Notes under the pieces: generated by a model
Told to the model about the DNA's origin: nothing
The model's input: only the letters and a program-made list of their open reading frames with translations
Databases searched by the model: none
Shown here: positions 9,622 through 41,039 of the stretch, piece by piece
How positions within the stretch are numbered: position 1 is the stretch's first letter
Layout of the letters: every line of letters begins with the position of its first letter
Position numbers and translations under genes: made by a program
Source of the DNA: Bacillota bacterium
GTDB taxonomy: Bacteria; Bacillota; Desulfotomaculia; Desulfotomaculales; Nap2-2B
Direction: 5' to 3'
Assembly (NCBI GenBank): GCA_040755975.1
Contig: JBFLZY010000006.1
Coordinates: 10,078-74,077, forward strand
Length of the DNA: 64,000 nucleotides

Positions 9622-9639
9622 TACACCGGTTCCTCCTCT

Positions 9640-9955
9640 TTCGAAAATAGATCCCGTCTTGCCGTCCGTTTGCCGTCGCTCCGATGCTACGGGCCGACGA
9701 GACAGCGGCTTGGTTCGGAGCGAACCGTAGCAGCGCTGCAAAATGCGCGCGGAACATTACTTTTTTATTCTTCTGGCGCCAGGCAGCGATTACTGTTTAC
9801 TCTTTGCATAGTCGTATTGGCGCGTTTCGCGCTGCCGGTTCGCTTACCTCACCTACGCCGTGTCTCGTTACCGGCCCTTCGCATATGTCGCTCCCGGCAA
9901 ATCGGACGGCAAGCCGTTGGTTTTTCGTTCTTTATGTATGGAAACGTACGCTCCC
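9640..9955 (-). repeat. Copy A of a ~250-nt rod-like hairpin element (paralog at 31200-31535), located in the proS 5' leader
   Basis: About 90% identity of both arms to 31244-31499; closing stem 9661-9675 pairs with 9893-9910; the central ~70 nt are more diverged. Confidence 0.65.
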
Positions 9956-9975
9956 ATGGGCAACTCCCTTGAAAA

Positions 9976-19567: not shown

Positions 19568-19732
19568 TCCCAACACCTCGCTTTCAATTAAAAGAAGAGG
19601 GAGAGGGGGAGAGGGGGTCTTCTTCGGGGAATGACGCCCTCTCCACAGGGGAAGGGTCGTTTATTGACCAGCGCCTCTCCAAAAAGCATGAAAAGGGAGC
19701 AGGTTAAAAGCTTCGTAACTTTGGCAAACGCC

Positions 19733-19811
19733 CAAAACAAAAGGCCGGTTGCCTTGAACCAAGGCTAACCGGCCTATCGTTGTTCGATTTGGCCTAAACT
19801 CTTTTTACTTT
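19733..19811 (-). ncRNA. Candidate short transcript / attenuator (copy 1): conserved hairpin overlapping an intrinsic terminator
   Basis: Minus-strand RNA reads GGCCAAAUCGAACAACGAUAGGCC followed by AGGCCGGUU..AACCGGCCU UUUGUUUU; 25 of 26 nt of the core are identical to the copy at 28816-28841. Confidence 0.5.
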
Positions 19812-19817
19812 GTTAAA

Positions 19818-19846
19818 ATTATAACAAAGCAATCGGGTGCTGTCAA
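19818..19846 (-). promoter_or_regulatory. Consensus sigma-70-type promoter (TTGACA-17-TATAAT) driving the short transcript
   Basis: Minus strand has TTGACA (19846-19841), a 17-nt spacer and TATAAT (19823-19818). Confidence 0.7.
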
Positions 19847-19903
19847 GAAATTTATTAGCAAAAGTTTTGGCAAATGTTCAGAAAAACCGTAAAAGATCCT
19901 TCT

Positions 19904-20617
19904 TCAGGCTTCTGCTTTTTCCGCGGGCTTGCTGGCCGTGATCCCCAGCCCCTCAAAGATCAACATGATGGCAAAGCCGTACCAGATGGTGTAAACAACG
20001 TAAAAAACGAGGGAACCAACCGAAATTCCCGCCACTTCCCGGAACCGGGCCGGCGGAATGCCGTCATAATTGTACGCCGGCTCCAAAGCCTTCTTGCTTA
20101 CGTTTTCAACAAACACCGCCTCCGCCGGTTTGTTTTCCTGCAGGTAGTGACCTTTTAACTGCTTGAAGGCCGCCCACCAGTAATAAACGGCTTCCTTGCC
20201 GGAAAAACCGTATTGATTTGGGGCGGGCGTTTCCCCGCTCTGAAACAAGGCATCGGCGTCAGCCAGCGCGCGCCGGGCCACCAGGCCCAGGTCGCCCGTG
20301 ACCCGCAGGCTTTCTCCGCTGACCGCCGCTCCCGCGCCCGCGGCAAGGAAGAGAGTTTTCATTTTTTCCAGCTCTTCGGCACTTTTCACCTGGAAAGTAA
20401 CTTCCATTTTAGTTCCGGTAAATCGATCTGCTTTCCCGGCCAGGTCCGGAATAAAGTAGGACGATCCCTTAGCCAAAGAGTTAAAGATGCCGTCGACCAG
20501 ATGCAACCCGGTCGCACCTTGAAAAACCGGGCTGAGGATTACGGCCAGGGTCGCTCCGAAGCAAATCAGCAGCACCAGGCCGGCGATAAATGCCCTCCGG
20601 TTAATGATTACAGGCAT
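19904..20617 (-). CDS. Membrane-anchored hypothetical protein (N- and C-terminal TM segments), partner of the TauE-like permease
   Basis: 237-aa ORF 20 nt downstream of the 441-aa permease gene; no family recognised. Confidence 0.55.
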   Translation of the reverse strand: MPVIINRRAFIAGLVLLICFGATLAVILSPVFQGATGLHLVDGIFNSLAKGSSYFIPDLAGKADRFTGTKMEVTFQVKSAEELEKMKTLFLAAGAGAAVSGESLRVTGDLGLVARRALADADALFQSGETPAPNQYGFSGKEAVYYWWAAFKQLKGHYLQENKPAEAVFVENVSKKALEPAYNYDGIPPARFREVAGISVGSLVFYVVYTIWYGFAIMLIFEGLGITASKPAEKAEA

Positions 20618-20637
20618 CTGTACGCACCCCCTTCATC

Positions 20638-21963
20638 CTAACGAGAAGACTCCAAGGCCTGTTCCGTCCGCCCGGACGTTGCCGGCACACCGGCCAGAGC
20701 AGCGTGTTCCGCCCTGATTTTTCCCACGCTGCGCAGGAAAGAGGCCAGGACCCAGAAAGCAAACCCGCTGACCAAAGCAAAAAAGATGACCGTTCCGATG
20801 GTGCTCAGCAGTTTTCCGGCGGCCGGGGCCAGGCTAAGGTAACCGGCGCTGGAAAGCTTTTCCGGCAGAGCACAGGCCCGGTTGACAAAGCCGGCAAAAA
20901 TGGCCAGAGCGTAAAAACCGCGGATGACCGCCCCCTTGACCACCTTCGTCACCATGGCGCCGATTTGCACGCCGACCAGGGAGCCCAGCAAGAGGCCCAT
21001 GGTCAGGGAGTAAAAGACGAACCCGCTGATGGCGTATTGAATGGACGCATACCCGGCCGTAAAGATGATCTGCAAAATATCGGTGCCGACGGTCGTAAAC
21101 GTGGATACGCCAAGGCCGTAGACAAACATCGGGAAGGTCAGAAAACCTCCGCCGACACCCATAATGGCGGCGATAAAACCGACTATGAATCCGCACCCGA
21201 TAACCGGATAAACCGGCAACTGCCGGCCGCCCGGGACAATGTCCTGGTCGAATTTAACGTAGGGGGGAATCTTCAAGGACTGTAACGTCCGGGCAATCCT
21301 GGTCGTGGTTTGCACCTGCGCTTTTTGGGAAGCCTCGGCCCGGCGCAGGCTAAGATAATCGTAAAGGGCATAAGCCCCCAGAATGCCGAGCATGAAAACA
21401 TAGACTCCACTGATAAAGGCGTCGCTGAGCGCGGGGCTCTTTTCGTAAATGGACTTGTTCAAGCCCGTTCCCAACGTCACCCCAAGGGTTGAACCAACGA
21501 CAAACCAGACCGCCAGCCAGACGTTCACGTTGCCCAGCTTCCGGTGCAGGGCGGTGCCCATGATCGCTTTGGCAAAAATATGAAACTGGTCGGTCCCCAC
21601 CGTCATAATTCCCCTTACCCCGATACTCATCAACGCCGGGGTAATCACGAAACCCCCGCCGGCGCCGATACACCCGGTAATTAAACCCGCAACCAACCCC
21701 ACAAAAAGCGAACCCAAAAACATTTCCGTGGTAATAAAGGACGGCGCGTAAGCTTTGCCGCCGCCAATCAATTCGGTCGCCAAAGCTATTTCTACGCCCA
21801 TAAAAATGATTACCGGCAAAAGGGCGGCCAGCAATATTTTCCAGCGCCTGGCGAGGATAAACCTGCTGTTTTCAATTTCCCAGCGGGCGTAGGCGCTTTG
21901 CAGGTTCAGCAGCGTATTGTTGAACTGCCTTCCTTTGTGGCAAAGTTTAGACCACAAATGCAT
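20638..21963 (-). CDS. TauE/SafE (DUF81) family anion permease, long form
   Basis: 441 aa; duplicated GxGGG-type motifs (CIGAGGGFVITPAL and IMGVGGGFLTFPMF) with TVGTD motifs typical of TauE/SafE; ATG 21963 after GGGGGAG. Confidence 0.8.
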   Translation of the reverse strand: MHLWSKLCHKGRQFNNTLLNLQSAYARWEIENSRFILARRWKILLAALLPVIIFMGVEIALATELIGGGKAYAPSFITTEMFLGSLFVGLVAGLITGCIGAGGGFVITPALMSIGVRGIMTVGTDQFHIFAKAIMGTALHRKLGNVNVWLAVWFVVGSTLGVTLGTGLNKSIYEKSPALSDAFISGVYVFMLGILGAYALYDYLSLRRAEASQKAQVQTTTRIARTLQSLKIPPYVKFDQDIVPGGRQLPVYPVIGCGFIVGFIAAIMGVGGGFLTFPMFVYGLGVSTFTTVGTDILQIIFTAGYASIQYAISGFVFYSLTMGLLLGSLVGVQIGAMVTKVVKGAVIRGFYALAIFAGFVNRACALPEKLSSAGYLSLAPAAGKLLSTIGTVIFFALVSGFAFWVLASFLRSVGKIRAEHAALAGVPATSGRTEQALESSR

Positions 21964-22512
21964 CCACTTCTCCCCCTTTCAAAATCGAAAAGCCTGATGA
22001 AGCCGCCTGGTGATCTTTTCCATATTTCTTTTTCTAAATCAACCTGCTCCCTTTGCATGTTTTTTGAAGAAACCGGTCTCCAACAACCCTTTTTCTGCCA
22101 AAAATGTTCTTGATCTATCCGGATGGTCAACACCTCCTTCTTTTTTGCTAAATCTCCTGCCCATGTGAACTTATTCACTTCACTTGCCGGATAATACTCC
22201 CCGCACACAATCCGGCACCGGGGTCCTGCTTGAAATTTAACAGCCAATTTCCTCCGGACCGGAAACCCTCCCTCATCTGCGTAGCAGAGTAATCGCGACA
22301 ACTCCTTAATTGCCGATTGTGATATAATTAACTTTCTTTATGAGAAATTTATGTTTTTGTCACTACACCTGTCAAACCTGAATATTTCGATCTATTGGCT
22401 TACCAACTTAAATATTATTAACATTCCTGTTCTTGTTCTATTTACTCTTCATCAGCCAGTTTATCTCGTTTTTTTGAGTTATCGTGAAATCAAAAAATTC
22501 ACGGCGAAGGGA

Positions 22513-23352: not shown

Positions 23353-24885
23353 ATGCCTCCTTTTACCCAAATGCCGGGTTTTAAACGCCAATTTTTACTA
23401 ATTGTGTTTATCCTTTTAATCGTCCCGGTGCTGGTGATGCTTTACGACGTCTATTTCGCCTCCAAAACCGACGACATTCTGGTCGTCAACCTCGAAAAAA
23501 AGCTTACCGGCATTGTCAATCAGACGGGCGAAAAAATCACCGCCCGGCTCGCACTGGAACCGGCCGGAAAACAGGCCGCTTCCCTGGAAGAGGCATTCAA
23601 TCAGGCGGCCGCTCCCCTGGCGGAAGCCAACCCGGGCGTCCGGCTGTGTATCTACCTGATCGAAAAAGACAAGATCGTCATCCACGGCTATCTTCACGAA
23701 TTCGGCAAGCGCCTGCCGGAAGAAAAATACGAACGGGAACGGCGCATTTACAACGAAGCGTTAAAAGGAATTTCCGCCGTGATGAAAAGCGGGGAACATA
23801 TCACCAGACTGGGCCGGACATGGGATGACCAGTTCTTGGAATACCTGGTCCCGGTGCGCGTTAACGGCCAGATCACCGCGGTGCTGTGGGCGGAGGAAAT
23901 GATGCACCCGCTTTTTGCCCGCAGCACGAAGCTGCGCCTGGTAATCCGCTACGTCACCCTCGTGGTCTTCAGCTTTGGCGTCATTGCTTCCCTGGTCGCC
24001 ATTGCCTCTTTGGTCCGGCAGGTAAGGGTAATCAAAAACGGCCTCTTGCAACTGGAGAACAATTTTTACTACCGGCTCCCGGCGCTGCCGGGCGAGATGG
24101 GCCAGATTACCGGGGCGATCAACACCTTGGCCGCCGGTCTTGCCGAAAGAGAACAAATGATTGAACAATTGCGGCGTTCGGAAAACCTGATCGCCCTCGG
24201 CAAACTGGTCACCAACATCGCCCACGAGCTACGCAACCCGGTTAGTATTATCCAGGCCGTCAGCGAAGTGCTGGCGTCCCGGTTGAAGAGTTCTCCGGAA
24301 TTAAAAGGGTATGCGGAATACGTAACAAAAATTCAGGAGCAAATCGAAAGACACAACCGGCTGGTGGGAGAACTGCTGGACTTTGGGCGACCAGACCCCG
24401 GCCTCATCGCGCCCCTGAGCTTAAATGAACTGATTTCCGTAATTCTAGGGGACTGCGCTTTGTTGCTCCAGCAAAAAAAGATCGCCCTCGAATTCGCTCC
24501 CAGCGCGGAACCGCTGCTCATAAAGGGCAACCAGGAAAAACTCAAGCAGGTACTGATCAACCTCCTGCTTAACGCCGTCCAGGCCATGCCCAGGGGGGGA
24601 AACCTGATCGTCCGGACGGAAGCAGTCAACCACACGGCCCGGGTGATGATCCGCGACACCGGGGTAGGCATCTCCAAAGAAGACCTGCCGCAAATTTTCA
24701 CCCCTTTCTATACCAAAAAAGCCGGCGGGGGCGGTCTGGGCCTGGCGATCAGCCGGCGCATCGTCCAGATTCACGGGGGGTCGATCAGCGCGGAAAGCGA
24801 ACCCGGGGCGGGTACCACTTTCATCCTCAGCTTTCCGCGTCTTCAAACGGACGAAGAAAACATAGCGTTATCCCCAGATACTTAG
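23353..24885 (+). CDS. Sensor histidine kinase (2 TM, extracytoplasmic sensor domain, HAMP, HisKA, HATPase_c), paralog 1
   Basis: H-box NIAHELRNPVS, N-box LLLNAVQAMP, G-boxes RDTGVGI and GGGGLGLAISRRIV; same architecture as the ORF at 35104-36669. Confidence 0.9.
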   Translation: MPPFTQMPGFKRQFLLIVFILLIVPVLVMLYDVYFASKTDDILVVNLEKKLTGIVNQTGEKITARLALEPAGKQAASLEEAFNQAAAPLAEANPGVRLCIYLIEKDKIVIHGYLHEFGKRLPEEKYERERRIYNEALKGISAVMKSGEHITRLGRTWDDQFLEYLVPVRVNGQITAVLWAEEMMHPLFARSTKLRLVIRYVTLVVFSFGVIASLVAIASLVRQVRVIKNGLLQLENNFYYRLPALPGEMGQITGAINTLAAGLAEREQMIEQLRRSENLIALGKLVTNIAHELRNPVSIIQAVSEVLASRLKSSPELKGYAEYVTKIQEQIERHNRLVGELLDFGRPDPGLIAPLSLNELISVILGDCALLLQQKKIALEFAPSAEPLLIKGNQEKLKQVLINLLLNAVQAMPRGGNLIVRTEAVNHTARVMIRDTGVGISKEDLPQIFTPFYTKKAGGGGLGLAISRRIVQIHGGSISAESEPGAGTTFILSFPRLQTDEENIALSPDT

Positions 24886-24916
24886 CCTCATCACATTTCA
24901 AATTTGATCGGCAGTA

Positions 24917-24968
24917 TTGACATCATTATGAAATTAATGTTACACTAAAATTGTGATAACTATCACAA
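24917..24968 (+). promoter_or_regulatory. Promoter (TTGACA-18-TACACT) followed by the perfect CRP/FNR-type palindrome TTGTGATAACTATCACAA
   Basis: TTGACA 24917-24922, TACACT 24941-24946, palindrome 24951-24968, 22 nt upstream of the receiver gene start. Confidence 0.65.
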
Positions 24969-24990
24969 ATCTCTTTAGGAGGGGATAATT

Positions 24991-25371
24991 GTGGCCAGGG
25001 TACTTGTTATTGACGATGAAGAGGGGATGTGCTGGGCGCTGGAAAAAGCCCTGGAGGAAGAAGGCCACCGGGTTTTTACCGCCACCTGCGGGCTGGCCGG
25101 TCTGGCTGTTTTCAAGGCGCAAGAAATCGACCTGGTCCTTTGCGACATCAAGATGCCCGACATCAGCGGGCTGGAAGTTTTGGAGCAAATCCGCAAGAAA
25201 AAACCGGACGTTCCGGTGGTGATCATGACCGGGTACAGCACTTTGTCCGTTGCTCTGGAAGCAATTAAAAAAGGGGCCGTCAGCTACCTCACCAAACCTT
25301 TTCACATCGGTCAGCTAAAGGAATTGATGCAGAAAATGATTAATCAGCAGCCTTGCCGATCAGTCCATTAA
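24991..25371 (+). CDS. Stand-alone response-regulator receiver domain (NtrC-type receiver without AAA+ or HTH domains)
   Basis: VLVIDDE...DLVLCDIKMPDISGLEVL...YLTKPF; aligns with residues 1-120 of the NtrC-type protein at 36644 but stops after 126 aa. Confidence 0.9.
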   Translation: MARVLVIDDEEGMCWALEKALEEEGHRVFTATCGLAGLAVFKAQEIDLVLCDIKMPDISGLEVLEQIRKKKPDVPVVIMTGYSTLSVALEAIKKGAVSYLTKPFHIGQLKELMQKMINQQPCRSVH

Positions 25372-29666: not shown

Positions 29667-31238
29667 GTGGAAAAGAACAAAAAACTGCGAAAATGTAATG
29701 ACAAGGAGGGGGGTTGGCCGGTGTTTTTCCGAAAAATCACCACCCGCAGCAACGACAAGGAATACACGTACGTCAAGCTCATTGAAAACTACCGAAAGGG
29801 AAATAAGATCAAGCAAAGGGTCATCGCCAACCTGGGAAACATCGAAGAACTGGACCCGGACCGGGTGCGCAACCTGATCGCCAGCCTGGCGAAAGTTTGC
29901 GGCGTGGAACCTCCCGGCAAACCAAAATTGAAAATAAAAAGAGTCTTGCGTTACGGCGACGCCCTGCTGATCCATAAAATCTGGGAACGGCTGGGCCTCA
30001 CCGGCGCGGCGGGCGCCTTCCCCGGCGCGACGCCGGACCTGGCCCTGGCGATAGAACTGCTGGTCATTGCCGAACTCCTCCCCCTCCCCGCGGGAGCGTT
30101 TCAGGAATGGCGCCGCCACCTCTATTTGCCCGCTCCGGAACAGGCGAATCCCCCGCCCCGGGAAGAAGTCCTGAACTATCTGGCCGAAAACGGGCGGCGC
30201 CTCCAGGAACGCATCTTTCACCGGTTGCAGGAATGGGGAAAAGTAACCTCGCCCATCTACCTTTTCGCCGTGAAGAGCCTGGTGGAAAACATCCCCCCGC
30301 AGCCGGCCCACTTTCTCAACCGGCGCGGCGAACGCCGTTTCTTCGACCTGGATTTATTTACGACGCCCGCGGGAATCCCGGCCGGGTACGCCGCAACGGC
30401 TCGAAACACTGCAGACGGGCAAAACCTGACCAAAAGGATGGCCCAGGCCGGCGAACGGTTTAAAAATTACCGGGTTATCCTGGTCGGCAATTTTCCCGCC
30501 CTTCCCGAAGAAAATCCGCCTGGTCTTGCCAGGTACGCCCGGGAATACATCACCGGTCTTTCCCTTTCCTCCCCCAAAGCCGGGGAGACCAGCCGGAAAG
30601 TCTTGCCGGCAGACCTTTTCCCCGCAGATCTCATCCCGGCAGCTCTTTTGGAGAACTTCCACCGGCTTGCCGACGACCTCTGGTACCGGGAAATCAAATC
30701 GGAACAAACGCGCTACCTGTTATGTTCGAATCCTTTTCAAAATCGCAATTTCATTATTCAAACAAATACCGAAGATCTCCCCGCCTCCGAAATTATCCGG
30801 ATCTATAACGATTTCGCCGCTGTTCAAGCCCGCTACCGGGTCATCGGATGCCCCGCCCGGCCGGATTGCACCGCCATGAGCCTGCCGGGGCGGATCTTTA
30901 TTTCCTGGCTGGCCCACCTGGTCGAGAGGCTCCTCGACTATATTTTCCAGGAACAGGGAATTAATATAAATGCGCTTGCCGCCCTGCAAACTTTGGAGCC
31001 GGTTAAGATAGTCATCAACGAAATGGGGGGTGAGATCGGCAGTTCGGTAATGGCGATGGATAAGGCGCAGAAAAAAATTCTATCCGCCCTGGAAGCGGGA
31101 GTGGCGCCTTCAGAAGCACCTGACGGGTTTCGTCCGACTTCCTGTCCCGCCGGGCAACACCGGCGACACCTTAGAAAACAGAGGTTGGGGATTAGACTCC
31201 CAGGCCATTTTCGCAGCACAAACAGAAAACGAAAATGA
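29667..31238 (+). CDS. IS1634/IS4-family transposase-like protein, probably degenerate
   Basis: N-terminus FFRKITTRSNDKEYTYVKLIENYRKGNKIKQRVIANLG is typical of IS1634 transposases. The expected second catalytic Asp region reads ILVGNFPALPEEN. The last ~15 codons run into the hairpin repeat. Confidence 0.55.
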   Translation: MEKNKKLRKCNDKEGGWPVFFRKITTRSNDKEYTYVKLIENYRKGNKIKQRVIANLGNIEELDPDRVRNLIASLAKVCGVEPPGKPKLKIKRVLRYGDALLIHKIWERLGLTGAAGAFPGATPDLALAIELLVIAELLPLPAGAFQEWRRHLYLPAPEQANPPPREEVLNYLAENGRRLQERIFHRLQEWGKVTSPIYLFAVKSLVENIPPQPAHFLNRRGERRFFDLDLFTTPAGIPAGYAATARNTADGQNLTKRMAQAGERFKNYRVILVGNFPALPEENPPGLARYAREYITGLSLSSPKAGETSRKVLPADLFPADLIPAALLENFHRLADDLWYREIKSEQTRYLLCSNPFQNRNFIIQTNTEDLPASEIIRIYNDFAAVQARYRVIGCPARPDCTAMSLPGRIFISWLAHLVERLLDYIFQEQGININALAALQTLEPVKIVINEMGGEIGSSVMAMDKAQKKILSALEAGVAPSEAPDGFRPTSCPAGQHRRHLRKQRLGIRLPGHFRSTNRKRK

Positions 31239-31535
31239 CCGGCCCGCCGTTCGATTTGCCGGGAGCGACATGTGCGTAGGGCCGGGTAACGAGACACGGC
31301 GCAGGTGAGGCAAGCGAACCGGCAGCGCGAAACGCGCAAATAACCCAATGATAGAAAACTGACAGCAATCGCCGGAAAACCGAGTAAGAAAAGAAAACTA
31401 ATGTACCGCGCGCATTTTGCAGCGCTGCCTGGTTCGCTCCGAACCAGGCCGATGTCTCGTCGGCCCGAAGCATCGGAGCGACGGCAAACGAACGGCGGGC
31501 GAAAGCCTGTTTTCAGGAGAGAATAACGAGAGTAC
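31200..31535 (+). repeat. Copy B of the ~250-nt rod-like hairpin element, upstream of a TauE-like gene
   Basis: Closing stem 31244-31254 pairs with 31489-31499; extended imperfect helix; two compensatory substitutions relative to copy A. Confidence 0.65.
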
Positions 31536-31628
31536 CGGTCGCCGCGGGCGGCTCCCGGGAAAACCCCGGCGGACCGGACGGGCAGTTCCGTCAAGATTAT
31601 TTTTGAAACCTGAAAGGGGTGCAGGCAA

Positions 31629-35103: not shown

Positions 35104-36669
35104 ATGGCAATGAAATTCTTTCGAGGCAGGACCACTTTACGTTCCCAAATTATCTTAACCATTATTATTTTGCTGCTGATCCCCGTGCTGGTTGTTCTTT
35201 ACGATATCTTCTTCGCCACCAAAAGCGATGAAATAATGCTCACTGAAAAGGAGGAGCGCCTCCAGTCGATTATCCAAAATCAAATTGTCCCGGGGCTTAC
35301 CCTTGATTTAGAGAAAAAACTGGCCGGACAGGAAACTGCTGATCTGCCCCCGGAAATTCGCGACAGTCTCATCAGGGAATCTTTCGATGAAGTCGTCAAA
35401 CCGCTGGTGCCGAACTTTCCGGGAGTCCGGCTGGGGCTCTTTCTTCCCGAAAACCAGCAGATTTTCGTCCACGGCTTTTTGCACGGATACCGGTACCTGT
35501 CCCCGGAAGAAGCCAGGCAGAGGGAGAGGCGCATTCTGACGGAAGCCGATTCCGGGTTAATCGCCGTCAGCGCCAGCGGCCGTCCTCTGGCCAAGCTGAC
35601 GATGAGCTTGAACGACAAAACCATTGAATACTTCGCCCCCATCATAATCCAGGATAAGCTCGTGGCGGTAGTTTGGGCCGACGAGCGCCTGCACCCCATC
35701 TTTGCCTTAAGCCAGAGCTTTCGCCTGTTCATCCGCTACATCACCCTTTTCGTCCTCCTGGCCGGTGCCGCCGGGGTATTGATCGTCACCCACAACCTGG
35801 CCAAAGGAGTCAGCCTCATCAAGGAAGGTTTAGGCAAAATGGAAAAAGACCTGAACAAACTTCTTCCGGACTTACCCGGCGAAGCCGGCCAGATCGCCCG
35901 GGCCGTCAACAGGATGGCCGTCTCCCTGGCCGAAAAGGAAAAGTTGGAAGAGGAGCTGCGCCGCTCCGAACGCCTGGCCGCGCTGGGCCGGCTGGTAACG
36001 GGCGTGGCGCACGAGCTGCGCAACCCGATCAGCGTGGTCAAGGCCACCGTTCAATTGATGGAAACGGATTTTCAAGGCGTTGCAAACATCAACGAATATG
36101 TTAGTATAATTAAAGAACAGGTCGATCGCCAGAACAGGATCATCCAGGAATTGCTGGATTTCGGCCACCCGGGCAAAAACATTACCCAGCCGGTGGCTGT
36201 TAATTCTTTGCTGGAAAAAGTATTGACCTTTACTTCGTCGCTGTTGCGCCAAAATAATATCGAACTAAACCTGGAAACCAAAGAGCGCCTGCCGCTGATC
36301 GAAGCGGACGGGGAAAGAATCAAACAGGTTTTTGTAAATTTAATTCTGAACGCCGTTACGGCCATGCCTGAGGGGGGAACCCTGACCATTAAAACCTACC
36401 GGGAAAACAACAGCATCTGCTCGGAGTTCAGCGACACCGGTTCGGGCATCGCCCGCGAGCACCTGCCCAAAATCTTCGATCCTTTTTATACAACCAAGGA
36501 AAACGGCACCGGGCTGGGTCTGGCCATCAGCCACCAGATCGTCAAAAGCCACGGCGGCACCATCGAAGTGGCCAGCACCGGCCCGCAGGGAACCACTTTT
36601 AAAGTAAAGCTGCCGATGGTACAAACAACCAGGGGGTTGGACGATGGTACCCAAAATATTAATTATTGA
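35104..36669 (+). CDS. Sensor histidine kinase, paralog 2
   Basis: H-box GVAHELRNPIS, N-box LILNAVTAMP, G-boxes SDTGSGI and GTGLGLAISHQIV; N-terminal TM and sensor region alignable with 23353-24885. Confidence 0.9.
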   Translation: MAMKFFRGRTTLRSQIILTIIILLLIPVLVVLYDIFFATKSDEIMLTEKEERLQSIIQNQIVPGLTLDLEKKLAGQETADLPPEIRDSLIRESFDEVVKPLVPNFPGVRLGLFLPENQQIFVHGFLHGYRYLSPEEARQRERRILTEADSGLIAVSASGRPLAKLTMSLNDKTIEYFAPIIIQDKLVAVVWADERLHPIFALSQSFRLFIRYITLFVLLAGAAGVLIVTHNLAKGVSLIKEGLGKMEKDLNKLLPDLPGEAGQIARAVNRMAVSLAEKEKLEEELRRSERLAALGRLVTGVAHELRNPISVVKATVQLMETDFQGVANINEYVSIIKEQVDRQNRIIQELLDFGHPGKNITQPVAVNSLLEKVLTFTSSLLRQNNIELNLETKERLPLIEADGERIKQVFVNLILNAVTAMPEGGTLTIKTYRENNSICSEFSDTGSGIAREHLPKIFDPFYTTKENGTGLGLAISHQIVKSHGGTIEVASTGPQGTTFKVKLPMVQTTRGLDDGTQNINY

Positions 36670-37993
36670 CGACGAAAAACATCTTTGCTGGGCGCTGGAA
36701 AAAGCAATGCGCCAGGAAGGGTACAGCACTCTAAGCACCACGAGCGGCAAAAAGGGACTGGAGTTAATCAAGGAAGATCCTCCCTCGCTGGTTATTTTAG
36801 ATTTAAAAATGCCGGAGATGGACGGGCTGGAAGTACTCAAAAGGGCAAGGGAAATGCAGCCCAGGCTTCCCGTCATCATCCTGACCGCCCACGGAACCAT
36901 TGAAACGGCCATTGAAGCAATGAAAATCGGCGCGGTCGACTATCTCACCAAACCCTTCGACCTGGATGAATTAAAAATCGTCATCAAACAAAATCTCATG
37001 GTCAGCCAGCTGGTCACCGAAGTGAATTTCCTGCGCGCGGAACTGGCCAGAAAATACAGCTCCATAATCGGCGAAAGCAAAGCTATCCAGGAAGTAAAAA
37101 AACTGATCGAAAAAGTGGCGAAAAGCAACGCCACAGTGTTGATTACCGGCGAAAGCGGCACGGGCAAGGAAGTGGCTGCGCTGACCATCCACCAGCTAAG
37201 CCCGCGCCGGGACGGGCCCTTTGTGCCGGTAAACTGCGCCGCCCTGCCCGAACAACTGCTGGAAAGCGAGCTTTTCGGGCACGAAAAAGGGGCTTTTACG
37301 GGCGCGGTCGCCCGCAAGCTGGGCCGTTTTGAACTGGCCGACAAAGGAACGATCTTCCTGGATGAGATTACCGAGATGCCGCTGTCCATGCAGGTTAAGC
37401 TTTTGCGGGTGCTGCAGGAAAAATCCTTTGAGCGCGTCGGAGGGACCGAAACCCTGCGCGTGGATGTCCGGGTCATTGCCGCCACCAACCGGGATATCGC
37501 ATCAGCCATGCAACAGGGGCAGTTCCGGGAAGATCTCTACTACCGGTTAAACGTCTTCCAGATCCACATGCCCCCCTTAAGGGAAAGAAAAGAGGACATC
37601 CCTTTGCTGGCTCAACATTTTGTTGAAAAGTTCCGCCCTACCTACCTGGTGAACAAAATCTCCTCCACGGCCCTGGAACTGCTTGTTCGTTACCACTGGC
37701 CGGGAAACATCCGCGAACTCCAGAATGTTATCGAAAGGGCGGCGATTATTTGTCAAGGCAACGAAATATTACCCGAACATTTACCTAAAGAATTATTGTC
37801 CACGCAAAAAACAACGGCAAGTTCAATAATAAATTTTCCGGACCAGGGAATCTCCCTGGACGAGGTGGAAAAGGAACTGATTTTAAAAGCCCTGGAAAAA
37901 ACCGGCGGAAACCAGACCAGGGCCGCCCAACTATTGGGGATCACCCGCTCCGCTCTGCTTTACCGGAGCCAAAAATACGGCCTTAACATATAA
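36644..37993 (+). CDS. Sigma-54-dependent response regulator (NtrC/AtoC family: receiver + AAA+ + Fis HTH)
   Basis: Receiver DLKMPEMDG, Walker A GESGTGKE, GAFTGA loop (EKGAFTGAV), C-terminal HTH NQTRAAQLLGITRSALLYRSQKYGL. Confidence 0.95.
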   Translation: MVPKILIIDDEKHLCWALEKAMRQEGYSTLSTTSGKKGLELIKEDPPSLVILDLKMPEMDGLEVLKRAREMQPRLPVIILTAHGTIETAIEAMKIGAVDYLTKPFDLDELKIVIKQNLMVSQLVTEVNFLRAELARKYSSIIGESKAIQEVKKLIEKVAKSNATVLITGESGTGKEVAALTIHQLSPRRDGPFVPVNCAALPEQLLESELFGHEKGAFTGAVARKLGRFELADKGTIFLDEITEMPLSMQVKLLRVLQEKSFERVGGTETLRVDVRVIAATNRDIASAMQQGQFREDLYYRLNVFQIHMPPLRERKEDIPLLAQHFVEKFRPTYLVNKISSTALELLVRYHWPGNIRELQNVIERAAIICQGNEILPEHLPKELLSTQKTTASSIINFPDQGISLDEVEKELILKALEKTGGNQTRAAQLLGITRSALLYRSQKYGLNI

Positions 37994-40187: not shown

Positions 40188-41039
40188 ATGAGCGTAATAT
40201 CATCCAATTACGCATTAATTATCTTCCTGCTATGCCAATCCTTTATTCTCTGCCTGGTTACACAGTATATCATCATCAATAACTTGACAATTTACATGGG
40301 TATAATCGTGGTTGTCACTCTAATTGTAATAGGCAATGCCATCATGAGTTTTTTAATTCTCAAAAGGTTGGTACAAAGCGAATATCAAAGTATCTTACTG
40401 GAACAACAAGCCCGGAGCATAGAAGACATTCAGGAGTTAATCTGTAACATTCGCGCCCAGCGCCACGATTTTCTCAATCACCTGCAGACCGTTTACGGCC
40501 TTTTGCAAATGAACAAGGCGGAAAGCGCCCAGAGCTACCTGGCCGAAGTAGTCAGAGAAGCGCGGACGTCCGCCCAGCTCATTAATCTCAAGCAACCGGA
40601 GGTGGGGGCGCTAATCCAAAGAAAGGTAAACCAGGCCGCGGCCCAGGAAATCAGCTTTAACCTGACCATCCAGAGCGATTTGCACGCCGTACCGGTCCGT
40701 CCCTACCAGTTGAACCGGGTTCTGGGCAACCTGATTGACAACGCCTTTGAAGCCGTTATGGGGCTGGAACCGAAAGAGCGCTTCGTTAAGGTTGAAATCA
40801 GCGAAAACGAAGAAAATTACATCATCAAAGTTCTCAACTCGGGACCGGGTTTAAAGCCCGAAATTCTTGATCATATCTTTGCGCCCGGGTTCTCCACCAA
40901 AGGTTCAAACCGGGGTATGGGCCTCTCCATTGTTCGCGAAATAGTGGAGGAGCACGGGGGAACAATTTCGGTGTCTTCTCCGCCGACGATCTTTACGGTA
41001 AAATTTTCCCGGCCGGGAGGGAAAGGCAATGATTCATAA
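40188..41039 (+). CDS. GHKL/HPK10-type sensor histidine kinase (AgrC-like catalytic part with 2 TM)
   Basis: H-box IRAQRHDFLNHLQTVYGLL, N-box LGNLIDNAFEA, G-box GFSTKGSNRGMGLSIV. Confidence 0.8.
   Translation: MSVISSNYALIIFLLCQSFILCLVTQYIIINNLTIYMGIIVVVTLIVIGNAIMSFLILKRLVQSEYQSILLEQQARSIEDIQELICNIRAQRHDFLNHLQTVYGLLQMNKAESAQSYLAEVVREARTSAQLINLKQPEVGALIQRKVNQAAAQEISFNLTIQSDLHAVPVRPYQLNRVLGNLIDNAFEAVMGLEPKERFVKVEISENEENYIIKVLNSGPGLKPEILDHIFAPGFSTKGSNRGMGLSIVREIVEEHGGTISVSSPPTIFTVKFSRPGGKGNDS

Follow-up and report, generated by a model that had tools for sequence, protein, structure and literature searches.

We analyzed a 64,000-nt stretch of contig JBFLZY010000006.1 from a Bacillota bacterium (the window, by which we mean this whole stretch) and found that it carries two copies of an element with a long rod-like hairpin at its center, designated copy A (9638-9966, minus strand) and copy B (31196-31521, plus strand). 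The evidence presented below indicates, with a probability that we put at roughly 0.7, that both copies are non-autonomous elements resembling MITEs (miniature inverted-repeat transposable elements), which derive from an insertion sequence (IS) of the IS110 family, possess a palindromic core, and are probably moved in trans. A complete element consists of the first ~46-50 nt of the IS left end (ACCYCCATGCC, a small hairpin, and AACAGAGRAYGAAAAT), the rod, and the last ~14-17 nt of the right end (TATTTTCAGGGTAG), with the rod standing in place of the bridge-RNA body and the recombinase gene. Since the outer ends, ACCYCCATGCC... and ...TTTTCAGGGTAG, are not inverted repeats and the terminal inverted repeats (TIRs) of a strict MITE are absent, we refer to the element as "MITE-like". 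The ProS protein encoded in the window is 76% identical to Desulfofundulus proteins, and the host is therefore an uncultured relative of that group.

Comparison of filled and empty sites

The nearest relative found in the databases (locus L055) encodes a ProS that is 99% identical to that of the window, and its DNA is 98.8-98.9% identical on both sides of the copy A site. In this relative, the ispG stop and the proS start are separated by 23 nt (...GAGTTAATTTTCGAAGGAGGAACCGGTGTAATG), and the segment corresponding to window positions 9649-9966 is missing, which amounts to ~318 extra bases in the window. The empty site reads ...TTAATTTTCGAAGGAGGAACC... in L055, while the two junctions in the window read TTAATTTTCAAGG|GAGTTGCCC... 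and ...TCTATTTTCGAAAG|AGGAGGAACC; 11 nt of L055 align to both of them. The element is also absent from three more distant relatives (L056-L058; ProS 85, 83, and 81% identical), the ispG-proS spacers of L055-L058 being 23, 136, 77, and 34 nt long. Since the flanks of L055 are 98.9% identical and its ispG-proS spacer is only 23 nt, copy A is, judging from this sequence comparison, a recent insertion of ~318 nt between ispG and proS, and it was inserted as one unit, tails included. A second pair of a filled (L021) and an empty (L033) site was found among the collected loci. For copy B, exact-protein look-ups of the window IspG and TauE returned no record and hence no empty site.

A dispersed repeat family

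Further copies were gathered with an exact 20-mer from the 3' arm (in GTDB genomes), by BLAST from the window copy, and by a metagenome scan with the 5' tail; the loci from metagenome-assembled genomes (MAGs) comprised 8 kb each. The 20-mer had exact matches in 42 GTDB genome stretches, nearly all of them in four MAGs of uncultured Bacillota related to Desulfofundulus, namely Bacillota MAG158 (~20 loci), MAG242 (~11), HOT.MB2.58 (6; labelled Armatimonadota), and CTOTU1360 (3). BLAST yielded ~46 instances of 44-566 nt, and rod copies were present in metagenomes too. The copies are intergenic and lie beside unrelated genes, and a survey of the neighbors at these loci revealed no recurrent protein family or transposase next to them. 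Within the window, an nhmmer search with the family profile found exactly two copies (31185-31525, E = 6.7e-106, and 9633-9972, E = 2e-90; values in the order reported). Taken together with the filled and empty sites, these data show that the rod family is mobile, or was so recently.

Both window copies point toward the downstream gene, as the original prediction had stated. That prediction had also named many randomly oriented copies as an outcome that would speak against it; many copies were indeed found, but their orientation is not random. Where both flanking genes are known, 19 copies run in the same direction as both and 6 opposite to both, 3 lie between divergent genes and none between convergent ones. 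Relative to the upstream gene alone, 26 are co-directional and 11 opposed (overall ~26 against 10-11). Replication strand was considered as a possible cause of this bias: GC skew is negative across the whole window, yet copies A and B are oppositely oriented, and across the other loci gene direction and local GC skew are confounded, so that transcription and replication as its source are not separable there.

In anchored stacks, the 5' tail is conserved and starts with (A/G)TTAG|ACCYCCATGCC, followed by a small hairpin (TGCCRC-loop-GYGGCA) and then by AACAGAGRAYGAAAAT; (G/A)ATTAG precedes most tailed copies. On the other side, TATTTTCAGGGTAG follows 14 of 47 rod 3' arms (at most two mismatches) and ends exactly 22 nt past the basal stem in 13 of these 14, and 20 nt past it in the remaining one. 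GAAAAT and ATTTTC lengthen the rod. Short forms exist as hairpins of 44, 52, and 94 nt; by sequence they correspond to the predicted product of a deletion between the direct repeats GGAGC(GAC) across the hairpin, the 44- and 52-nt forms exactly so. Two pairs of loci (L020/L033 and L025/L037) have common flanks and hairpins of different lengths, and a tail-only unit of 64 nt was found at L014:5770-5833. Copy A belongs to a subfamily with L018 and L011, which has a CTTGCC/GGCAAG closing stem and its own tail variant. These two loci were examined as possible orthologs of copy A, which would have made it a conserved proS leader, and this was ruled out, since the alignment shows unrelated flanks. 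In a 241-nt subfamily, the A-rich apical region is replaced by another apical module.

Two further kinds of small repeats accompany the family. The longer forms contain a second element of ~60-110 nt with terminal inverted repeats CCGGCACTCAGC/GCTGAGTGCCGG, which is nested in the rod arms at recurrent positions (three times in L021:1975-2540; also in L002, L008, L009, L014, L018, L034, and L039). Short G-rich, telomere-like tandem motifs (GGGATTAG, GGGGTTAG, GGGTAG) lie on both sides of many copies (L028, L013, L032, L030, L031, L007, L024) and at window positions 31184-31195, and (GGCACAAA)n-like repeats lie beside others (L019, L030, L036, L014). They may represent arrayed ATTAG target sites; alternatively, this lineage may carry a separate class of short tandem repeats in its intergenic regions.

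Identification of a candidate partner IS110-family element

Besides rod copies, the metagenome scan with the 5' tail retrieved locus L047, in which the same 5' tail is followed by ~205 nt of non-coding DNA, an ORF of 406 aa, and the same 3' tail. The ORF product contains the domains DEDD_Tnp_IS110 (PF01548, 1.9e-41) and Transposase_20 (PF02371, 7.4e-25). Four relatives with 93, 92, 91, and 78% protein identity were found in four further contexts, so that this IS is present in five contexts with unrelated outside flanks. All of the relatives start at TAG|ACCCCCATGCC, and the right end reads ...GTTAGTTTATTTTCAGGGTAG|, i.e. TTTTCAGGGTAG|, in L047, L050, L051/L052, and L053, while L054 is cut by the contig end. 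Three of the four complete copies are 1.57 kb long. Nucleotides 1 to ~50 of the IS left end match rod 5' tails with 82-98% identity (E values down to 5e-17). The homology of the rods with the IS is confined to the two ends and stops at about nucleotide 50 of the left end, before the guide-like motifs described below; the rod core showed neither similarity nor complementarity to the IS interior. Metagenome Ga0315298 contains both the IS and copies of the rod.

In L050 (1501-3800), the left end and the last TTTTCAGGGTAG are 2,289 nt apart, apparently because a partial second transposase gene follows the first right end (the sequence ...GGCCCCCACCAGCGGATGCTT... recurs there), which suggests that the IS was inserted in tandem or nested. 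In L051 (3055-4185) and L052 (1850-2980), the IS110 copy has as its close downstream neighbor a gene for a protein of >400 aa with RRXRR and HNH domains, an architecture like that of IscB/Cas9-like nucleases. A search of the partner IS against Rfam, at gathering score and at E<=10, returned nothing.

Guide-like motifs in the left end of the IS

According to the published model of the IS110 group, the left end encodes a bridge RNA whose left target guide is in the same sense as the top strand of the left target, and whose left donor guide is in the same sense as that of the right end, the core being part of both; TIRs are typically absent (PMC11208160). The non-coding region at the left end of the partner IS holds CAUUAGAC and CAGGGUAGA(UU), which repeat, in the sense orientation, the left insertion junction (ATTAG|AC) and the right end (CAGGGTAG), and their orientation is that described for the two left guides (PMC11208160). 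In all four complete IS copies, 7 nt of this region repeat the outer left junction in sense (ATTAGAC or AGACCCC) and 9-11 nt repeat the outer right junction, likewise in sense (CAGGGTAGA[TT]), whereas alternative inner junctions (e.g. GAAAAT|TTATTTTC) had only chance-level matches there. The RNAalifold consensus places both motifs on the 3' sides of two successive predicted internal loops. In L054, the 78% relative, the first motif is AAGUAGAC and the flank is CAAGTAG, while elsewhere they are CAUUAGAC and ATTAG. Because the outer junctions are copied, the inner ones match at chance level, and the motif of L054 changes with its flank, we interpret the tails, from these sequence matches, as IS termini and ATTAG|A as the preferred target. 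In tailed rods and IS copies the left flank reads (G/A/C)ATTAG, and most of the tailed rods, copy B (GGGGATTAG|ACTCCC) among them, fit this target. For the copy A subfamily, a partner IS is predicted to have the ends GAG|TTGCCCATGGGAGCG... and ...TATTTTCGARRGAG.

Structure of the two copies and conservation of the hairpin

The features of the two copies are as follows.

31187..31195, plus strand: left flank of copy B, GGGGATTAG, target-like and ending in the common TAG
31196..31241, plus strand: 5' tail of copy B, in which the initial ~46-50 nt of an IS110-family left end (ACTCCCAGGCCATTTTCGCAGCACAAACAGAAAACGAAAATGACCG) are present in degenerate form
31242..31500, plus strand: rod-like imperfect hairpin (palindromic core) of copy B, from RNA and single-stranded DNA folds, with 73 consensus pairs in nine copies
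31262..31269, plus strand: direct repeat GGAGCGAC, 5' copy
31338..31409, plus strand: A-rich apical region of copy B, unpaired in the consensus structure and its most variable part (columns 108-179 of alignment A3)
31475..31482, plus strand: direct repeat GGAGCGAC, 3' copy
31501..31521, plus strand: 3' tail of copy B (GAAAGCCTGTTTTCAGGAGAG), in which the IS110 right end ...TATTTTCAGGGTAG is present in degenerate form
9914..9966, minus strand: 5' tail of copy A, subfamily variant GAGTTGCCCATGGGAGCGTACGTTTCC...GAACGAAAAACCAACGG, common to L018 and L011 with their unrelated flanks; boundary from the L055 empty site
9658..9913, minus strand: rod hairpin of copy A, closing stem CTTGCCG/CGGCAAG
9638..9657, minus strand: 3' tail of copy A (ACGGGATCTATTTTCGAAAG), whose last ~11 nt resemble the host at the left junction, which makes the exact breakpoint ambiguous

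The original prediction, made from the window sequence, had described a near-continuous hairpin at about 31244-31499, and this was borne out. The RNA fold of 31240-31505 has a free energy of -131.2 kcal/mol on the plus strand, compared with -91.5 +/- 4.6 for shuffled sequences (z = -8.6; none of 200 shuffles was as good), and of -126.1 kcal/mol on the minus strand (z = -7.2); single-stranded DNA folds of both whole elements gave z values of -7.9 and -7.7. The rod hairpins of copies A and B are thus confirmed to be real and far beyond chance. All of the features listed earlier are present, namely the pairings, two local hairpins (GCGCGAAACGCGC, GGTTCGCTCCGAACC), and a direct 8-mer on both arms (GGAGCGAC), and the second copy, previously placed at 9661-9910, exists as a reverse complement, with its rod at 9658-9913 on the minus strand. 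Only in its extent did the proposed unit of ~250 nt need revision: this length fits the hairpin, but the repeated unit is longer, since it includes conserved 5' and 3' tails (~31196-31521 and 9638-9966). The 5' tail of copy B has diverged from the consensus by eye, its 16-nt start motif being matched only with three mismatches, and its right end reads GGAGAG where the consensus has GGGTAG. Because its ends are degenerate, copy B is probably an immobile fossil.

Conservation was assessed in an alignment of nine full-length rods (A3). It has 73 consensus pairs, and 99.2% of the cells are paired across the nine copies. Fifty-nine of the pairs are invariant, six vary on one side only through wobble, and five are changed on both sides (12 cells), a number of pairs that was reached in 3 of 500 shuffles and a number of cells that was reached in none of 500. 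The five co-varying pairs correspond to about three events, each common to a subfamily: CC>UU with GG>AA in the copy A subfamily, U:A>C:G in copy A, and C:G>U:A plus G:C>A:U in L004, L020, L024, and L037. Two covariations had been claimed before. The first of them (CCGTTCG/CGAACGG versus CCGTCCG/CGGACGG) is a true double change from U:A to C:G in the helix, at pair 21/262, while the second (GCGTAGG/CCCGAAGC versus GCGAAGG/CCCGTAGC) falls in a 3x3 internal loop of the predicted fold, where other copies have T:C, T:G, A:A, or A:G, so that no conserved pair exists there. Mean pairwise identity falls from 95.1% at paired positions to 86.9% at internal unpaired positions, to 66.7% for the apical loop, and to 48.6% immediately outside the stem, which agrees with the ~90% (arms) and ~60% (apex) estimated earlier from the two window copies.

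Pairing therefore appears to be constrained and to matter for propagation or stability of the element. This constraint is not evidence for an RNA, because the two strands fold about equally and because the arms of a DNA palindrome can co-evolve by template switching or hairpin repair with no need of selection on an RNA. When both strands of 12 copies were folded, the mean difference was 4 of ~130 kcal/mol and the minus strand had at least as many G:U pairs as the plus strand; a signal specific to RNA is thus lacking. Strand-specific wobble was considered as a sign of RNA and rejected: RNAalifold counted 19 G:U against 2 A:C on the plus strand, which is biased by construction, and neither the arm-versus-arm alignment nor the two-strand folding of the 12 copies showed an asymmetry. 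Searches against Rfam (T-box, riboswitches, 6S, SRP, OLE, and others) at gathering score and at E<=10 returned no family over either copy and nothing above 17 bits, the sole gathering-score matches in the window being two tRNAs elsewhere, in agreement with the earlier failure to assign the element to SRP, 6S, T-box, or any riboswitch. A T-box upstream of proS was thereby ruled out. Scans for consensus promoters and terminators inside the element found none.

Proposed mechanism and alternative explanations

Following the published IS110 mechanism, we propose that the recombinase and the bridge RNA of the IS act in trans on the rods. According to this model, an autonomous IS would supply the DEDD recombinase and the bridge RNA, whose donor loop would recognize both ends of the element and whose target loop would recognize ATTAG|A sites; the element would then be cut or copied out as a circle and inserted site-specifically, mostly into short intergenic spacers. 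The hairpin behaves as a palindrome at the DNA level, with its helix kept while apex and outer sequence drift, and is prone to hairpin-mediated deletions that yield the short forms. Any effects on neighboring transcripts, as a roadblock, terminator, or stabilizer, would be a by-product. The copy A subfamily and L014 have a left flank similar to the right end of the element itself. Insertions by a donor-guide "half-match" have been described in a 2026 preprint, and the likeness would fit such an insertion, although this is only a suggestion.

Several observations weigh against this explanation. The homology of rod and IS at the right end is short, covering the last ~14-17 nt, and some rods (L025, L037) have no recognizable tails. 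The tails of the copy A subfamily differ, and no matching autonomous IS was found for them; copy A is moreover surrounded by an imperfect ~11-nt repeat that is readable as a target-site duplication. A tblastn search with the L047 recombinase found no IS110 gene in the window, the 326-nt element itself having none, and the MAG loci, at 8 kb each, showed no IS110 gene in the same genome as the rods. Right-side guides (RTG/RDG) were not identifiable, and the model leaves the origin and role of the palindromic core unexplained.

The original prediction had offered two candidates, a novel structured leader or non-coding RNA and a palindromic non-autonomous mobile element of the ERIC/REPIN type. That the rod is a cis-regulatory leader or an RNA gene acting on the downstream gene (proS or the TauE-like exporter) would accord with the direction of both window copies, with the co-directional bias of the family (19 versus 6 with both flanks known, 26 versus 11 for the upstream gene), and with the conserved helix and its five pairs changed on both sides. 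Yet at least 45 copies lie beside unrelated genes, copy A is absent from a 98.9%-identical genome and from the ispG-proS spacers of three relatives, the strands fold about equally with G:U pairs as many or more on the minus strand, Rfam has no match even at E<=10, no consensus promoter or terminator lies inside, and a deletion series down to 44 nt is tolerated, all of which makes a leader very unlikely. The second candidate stood as far as a palindromic non-autonomous mobile element is concerned, but not in its ERIC or REPIN-RAYT form, for the termini are those of an IS110-family element, and no RAYT/TnpA partner was seen beside the copies in the fetched loci. An element of the REPIN/RAYT or IS200/IS605 type, mobilized as a single strand by a Y1 HUH enzyme, would have explained the hairpins, the GTAG-like 3' end, the strand bias, and the lack of both TIRs and a clear duplication. 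We nevertheless regard it as a very improbable origin of the rods, as no recurrent Y1 transposase lies near the copies in those loci, the left-end hairpin has no sequence relationship to that of the core, the termini match the IS110-family element, and the two window copies are oppositely oriented against a uniformly negative GC skew.

A classical TIR-type MITE with a target-site duplication of ~10-11 bp, moved by a DDE transposase, is suggested by the IS1634-like ORF (NF033559, E = 9e-23) that copy B abuts and by the imperfect ~11-nt direct repeat around copy A, ATTTTC(A/G)A(A)G. The "repeat" at the right junction, however, is found in every copy whatever its flank and hence belongs to the element, and the left flanks resemble this repeat; the outermost ends, ACCYCC... 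and ...CAGGGTAG, are not mutual inverted repeats; and the IS1634-like gene lies near no other copy, stays below the cut-off of its family, and has an ORF that simply extends into the element. We therefore give such a MITE a low probability. Readings of the ends (TTAG...GTAG) in terms of TIRs, a target-site duplication, IS200/IS605, or IS91 had been considered and were dropped once the IS110 termini were found. Equally improbable in our opinion is that tails and rod together form a host REP-like repeat used as an insertion target, with the IS lying inside the repeat. In its favor, IS110-family elements often target repeats (PMC11208160), L014 has a tail-only 64-nt unit, and rod and IS share their position between GAAAAT and TATTTTC. 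What decides against it is that the left-end region of the IS copies the outer and not the inner junctions (7 nt and 9-11 nt, in sense, in the four complete copies), that the first motif of L054 changes together with the outer flank, and that copy A was inserted as a unit including its tails.

With regard to the palindromic core of the proposed IS110-derived element, one may speculate that it is not passive cargo but an adaptation on the part of a parasite of bridge-RNA recombinases, though we consider this doubtful. Single-stranded circular intermediates have been reported for IS621 in a 2026 preprint. If IS110 elements leave the donor as such circles, a ~330-nt circle that is ~80% self-complementary would collapse to a viroid-like DNA rod. 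At the base of this rod the left and the right end would be adjacent, and the rod would withstand nucleases and might also prime synthesis of the second strand. Such an adaptation would explain the 95% identity of the helix against 67% at the apex, the equal folding of both strands, and the left flanks that resemble the element's own right end.

Relation to known systems

The partner IS resembles the IS621-type IS110 group (PMC11208160, PMC11208158) in its DEDD_Tnp_IS110 and Transposase_20 domains, its long left and short right end, the lack of TIRs, its site specificity, and two left-end motifs that copy left target and donor in the expected sense; the window element shares its termini. It differs in that the core appears to be (T)AG(A) and not CT, and the window element has neither a recombinase nor a bridge-RNA body. 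A precedent for an IS110-family MITE-like element is MITEPpu9/ssr9 with ISPpu9 in Pseudomonas putida (PMC12288879). Both MITEPpu9 and the rod family are multi-copy and proposed to be moved in trans by an IS recombinase. MITEPpu9, however, carries ssr9, an expressed sRNA gene with complementarity to an antisense RNA that the IS encodes, and five of the eight MITEPpu9 copies are located inside ISPpu9 (PMC12288879). By contrast, the cargo of the rod family is a ~250-nt palindrome that is dispersed without the IS, in another host lineage and at another abundance, and is known here from sequence alone; an ssr9-like antisense role of the rod against the IS was ruled out by the lack of complementarity. 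The rod family is thus a new example of an IS110-derived MITE-like element, the general class being already known.

ERIC, Correia/NEMIS, pneumococcal BOX/RUP, and REP/REPIN elements are hairpins formed from the terminal inverted repeats of DDE-mobilized elements or from REP pairs (RAYT). The rod family shares with them small size, intergenic location, many copies, long hairpins, size variants due to indels, and the ability to sit within operons, but its palindrome is internal and its termini are asymmetric IS110-type ends. To our knowledge, MITEPpu9 is the only IS110-family MITE-like element described so far.

Neighborhood of the two copies and other features of the window

The insertion of copy A lies directly upstream of the ribosome-binding site of proS (AGGAGG; 9632-9637, minus strand), which is intact, and a ~250-nt hairpin now parts ispG and proS, whose spacer is 23 nt in the sister genome. 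Directly upstream of copy B, an ORF of 523 aa (29667-31238, plus strand) encodes a degenerate IS1634-family transposase (NF033559, 81 bits, E = 9e-23, cut-off 100) that aligns to profile positions 1-288 of 483 and has no Pfam match; its last ~14 codons enter the 5' tail of copy B. The stretch that separates copy B from the TauE-like gene (31536-31592, plus strand) holds a GC-rich hairpin (CCGGTCGCCGCGGG...CCCGGCGGACCGG) and, at 31577-31592, a stem-loop that has a T-run and resembles a terminator; neither of them belongs to the repeat family.

Elsewhere in the window, a 30-nt inverted repeat pair (19676-19705 and 22041-22070; 90% complementary) encloses ~2.3 kb with ORFs at 19904-21963, and this segment (19676-22070) may be another mobile or invertible one. 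Paralogous ORF pairs at 23353-25371, 35104-37993, and 40188-41039, which by their arrangement look like two-component (histidine kinase and response regulator) pairs, recur in the window and in several rod-bearing loci and are unrelated to the element.

Significance

The analysis removes a false lead, as the element is not a new riboswitch-like leader. It documents a natural, abundant, and non-autonomous element, a probable hitchhiker on an IS110-family (bridge-RNA) recombinase, in an uncultured, thermophile-related lineage of Bacillota, and defines its termini, its target motif (ATTAG|A), sites with and without an insertion, and a candidate partner IS that carries guide-like motifs. The tail-only unit, the 44-nt hairpin, and the 250-nt rod form a natural series of substrates, from which it may be learned what a bridge recombinase needs in cis and whether DNA structure helps a single-stranded intermediate.

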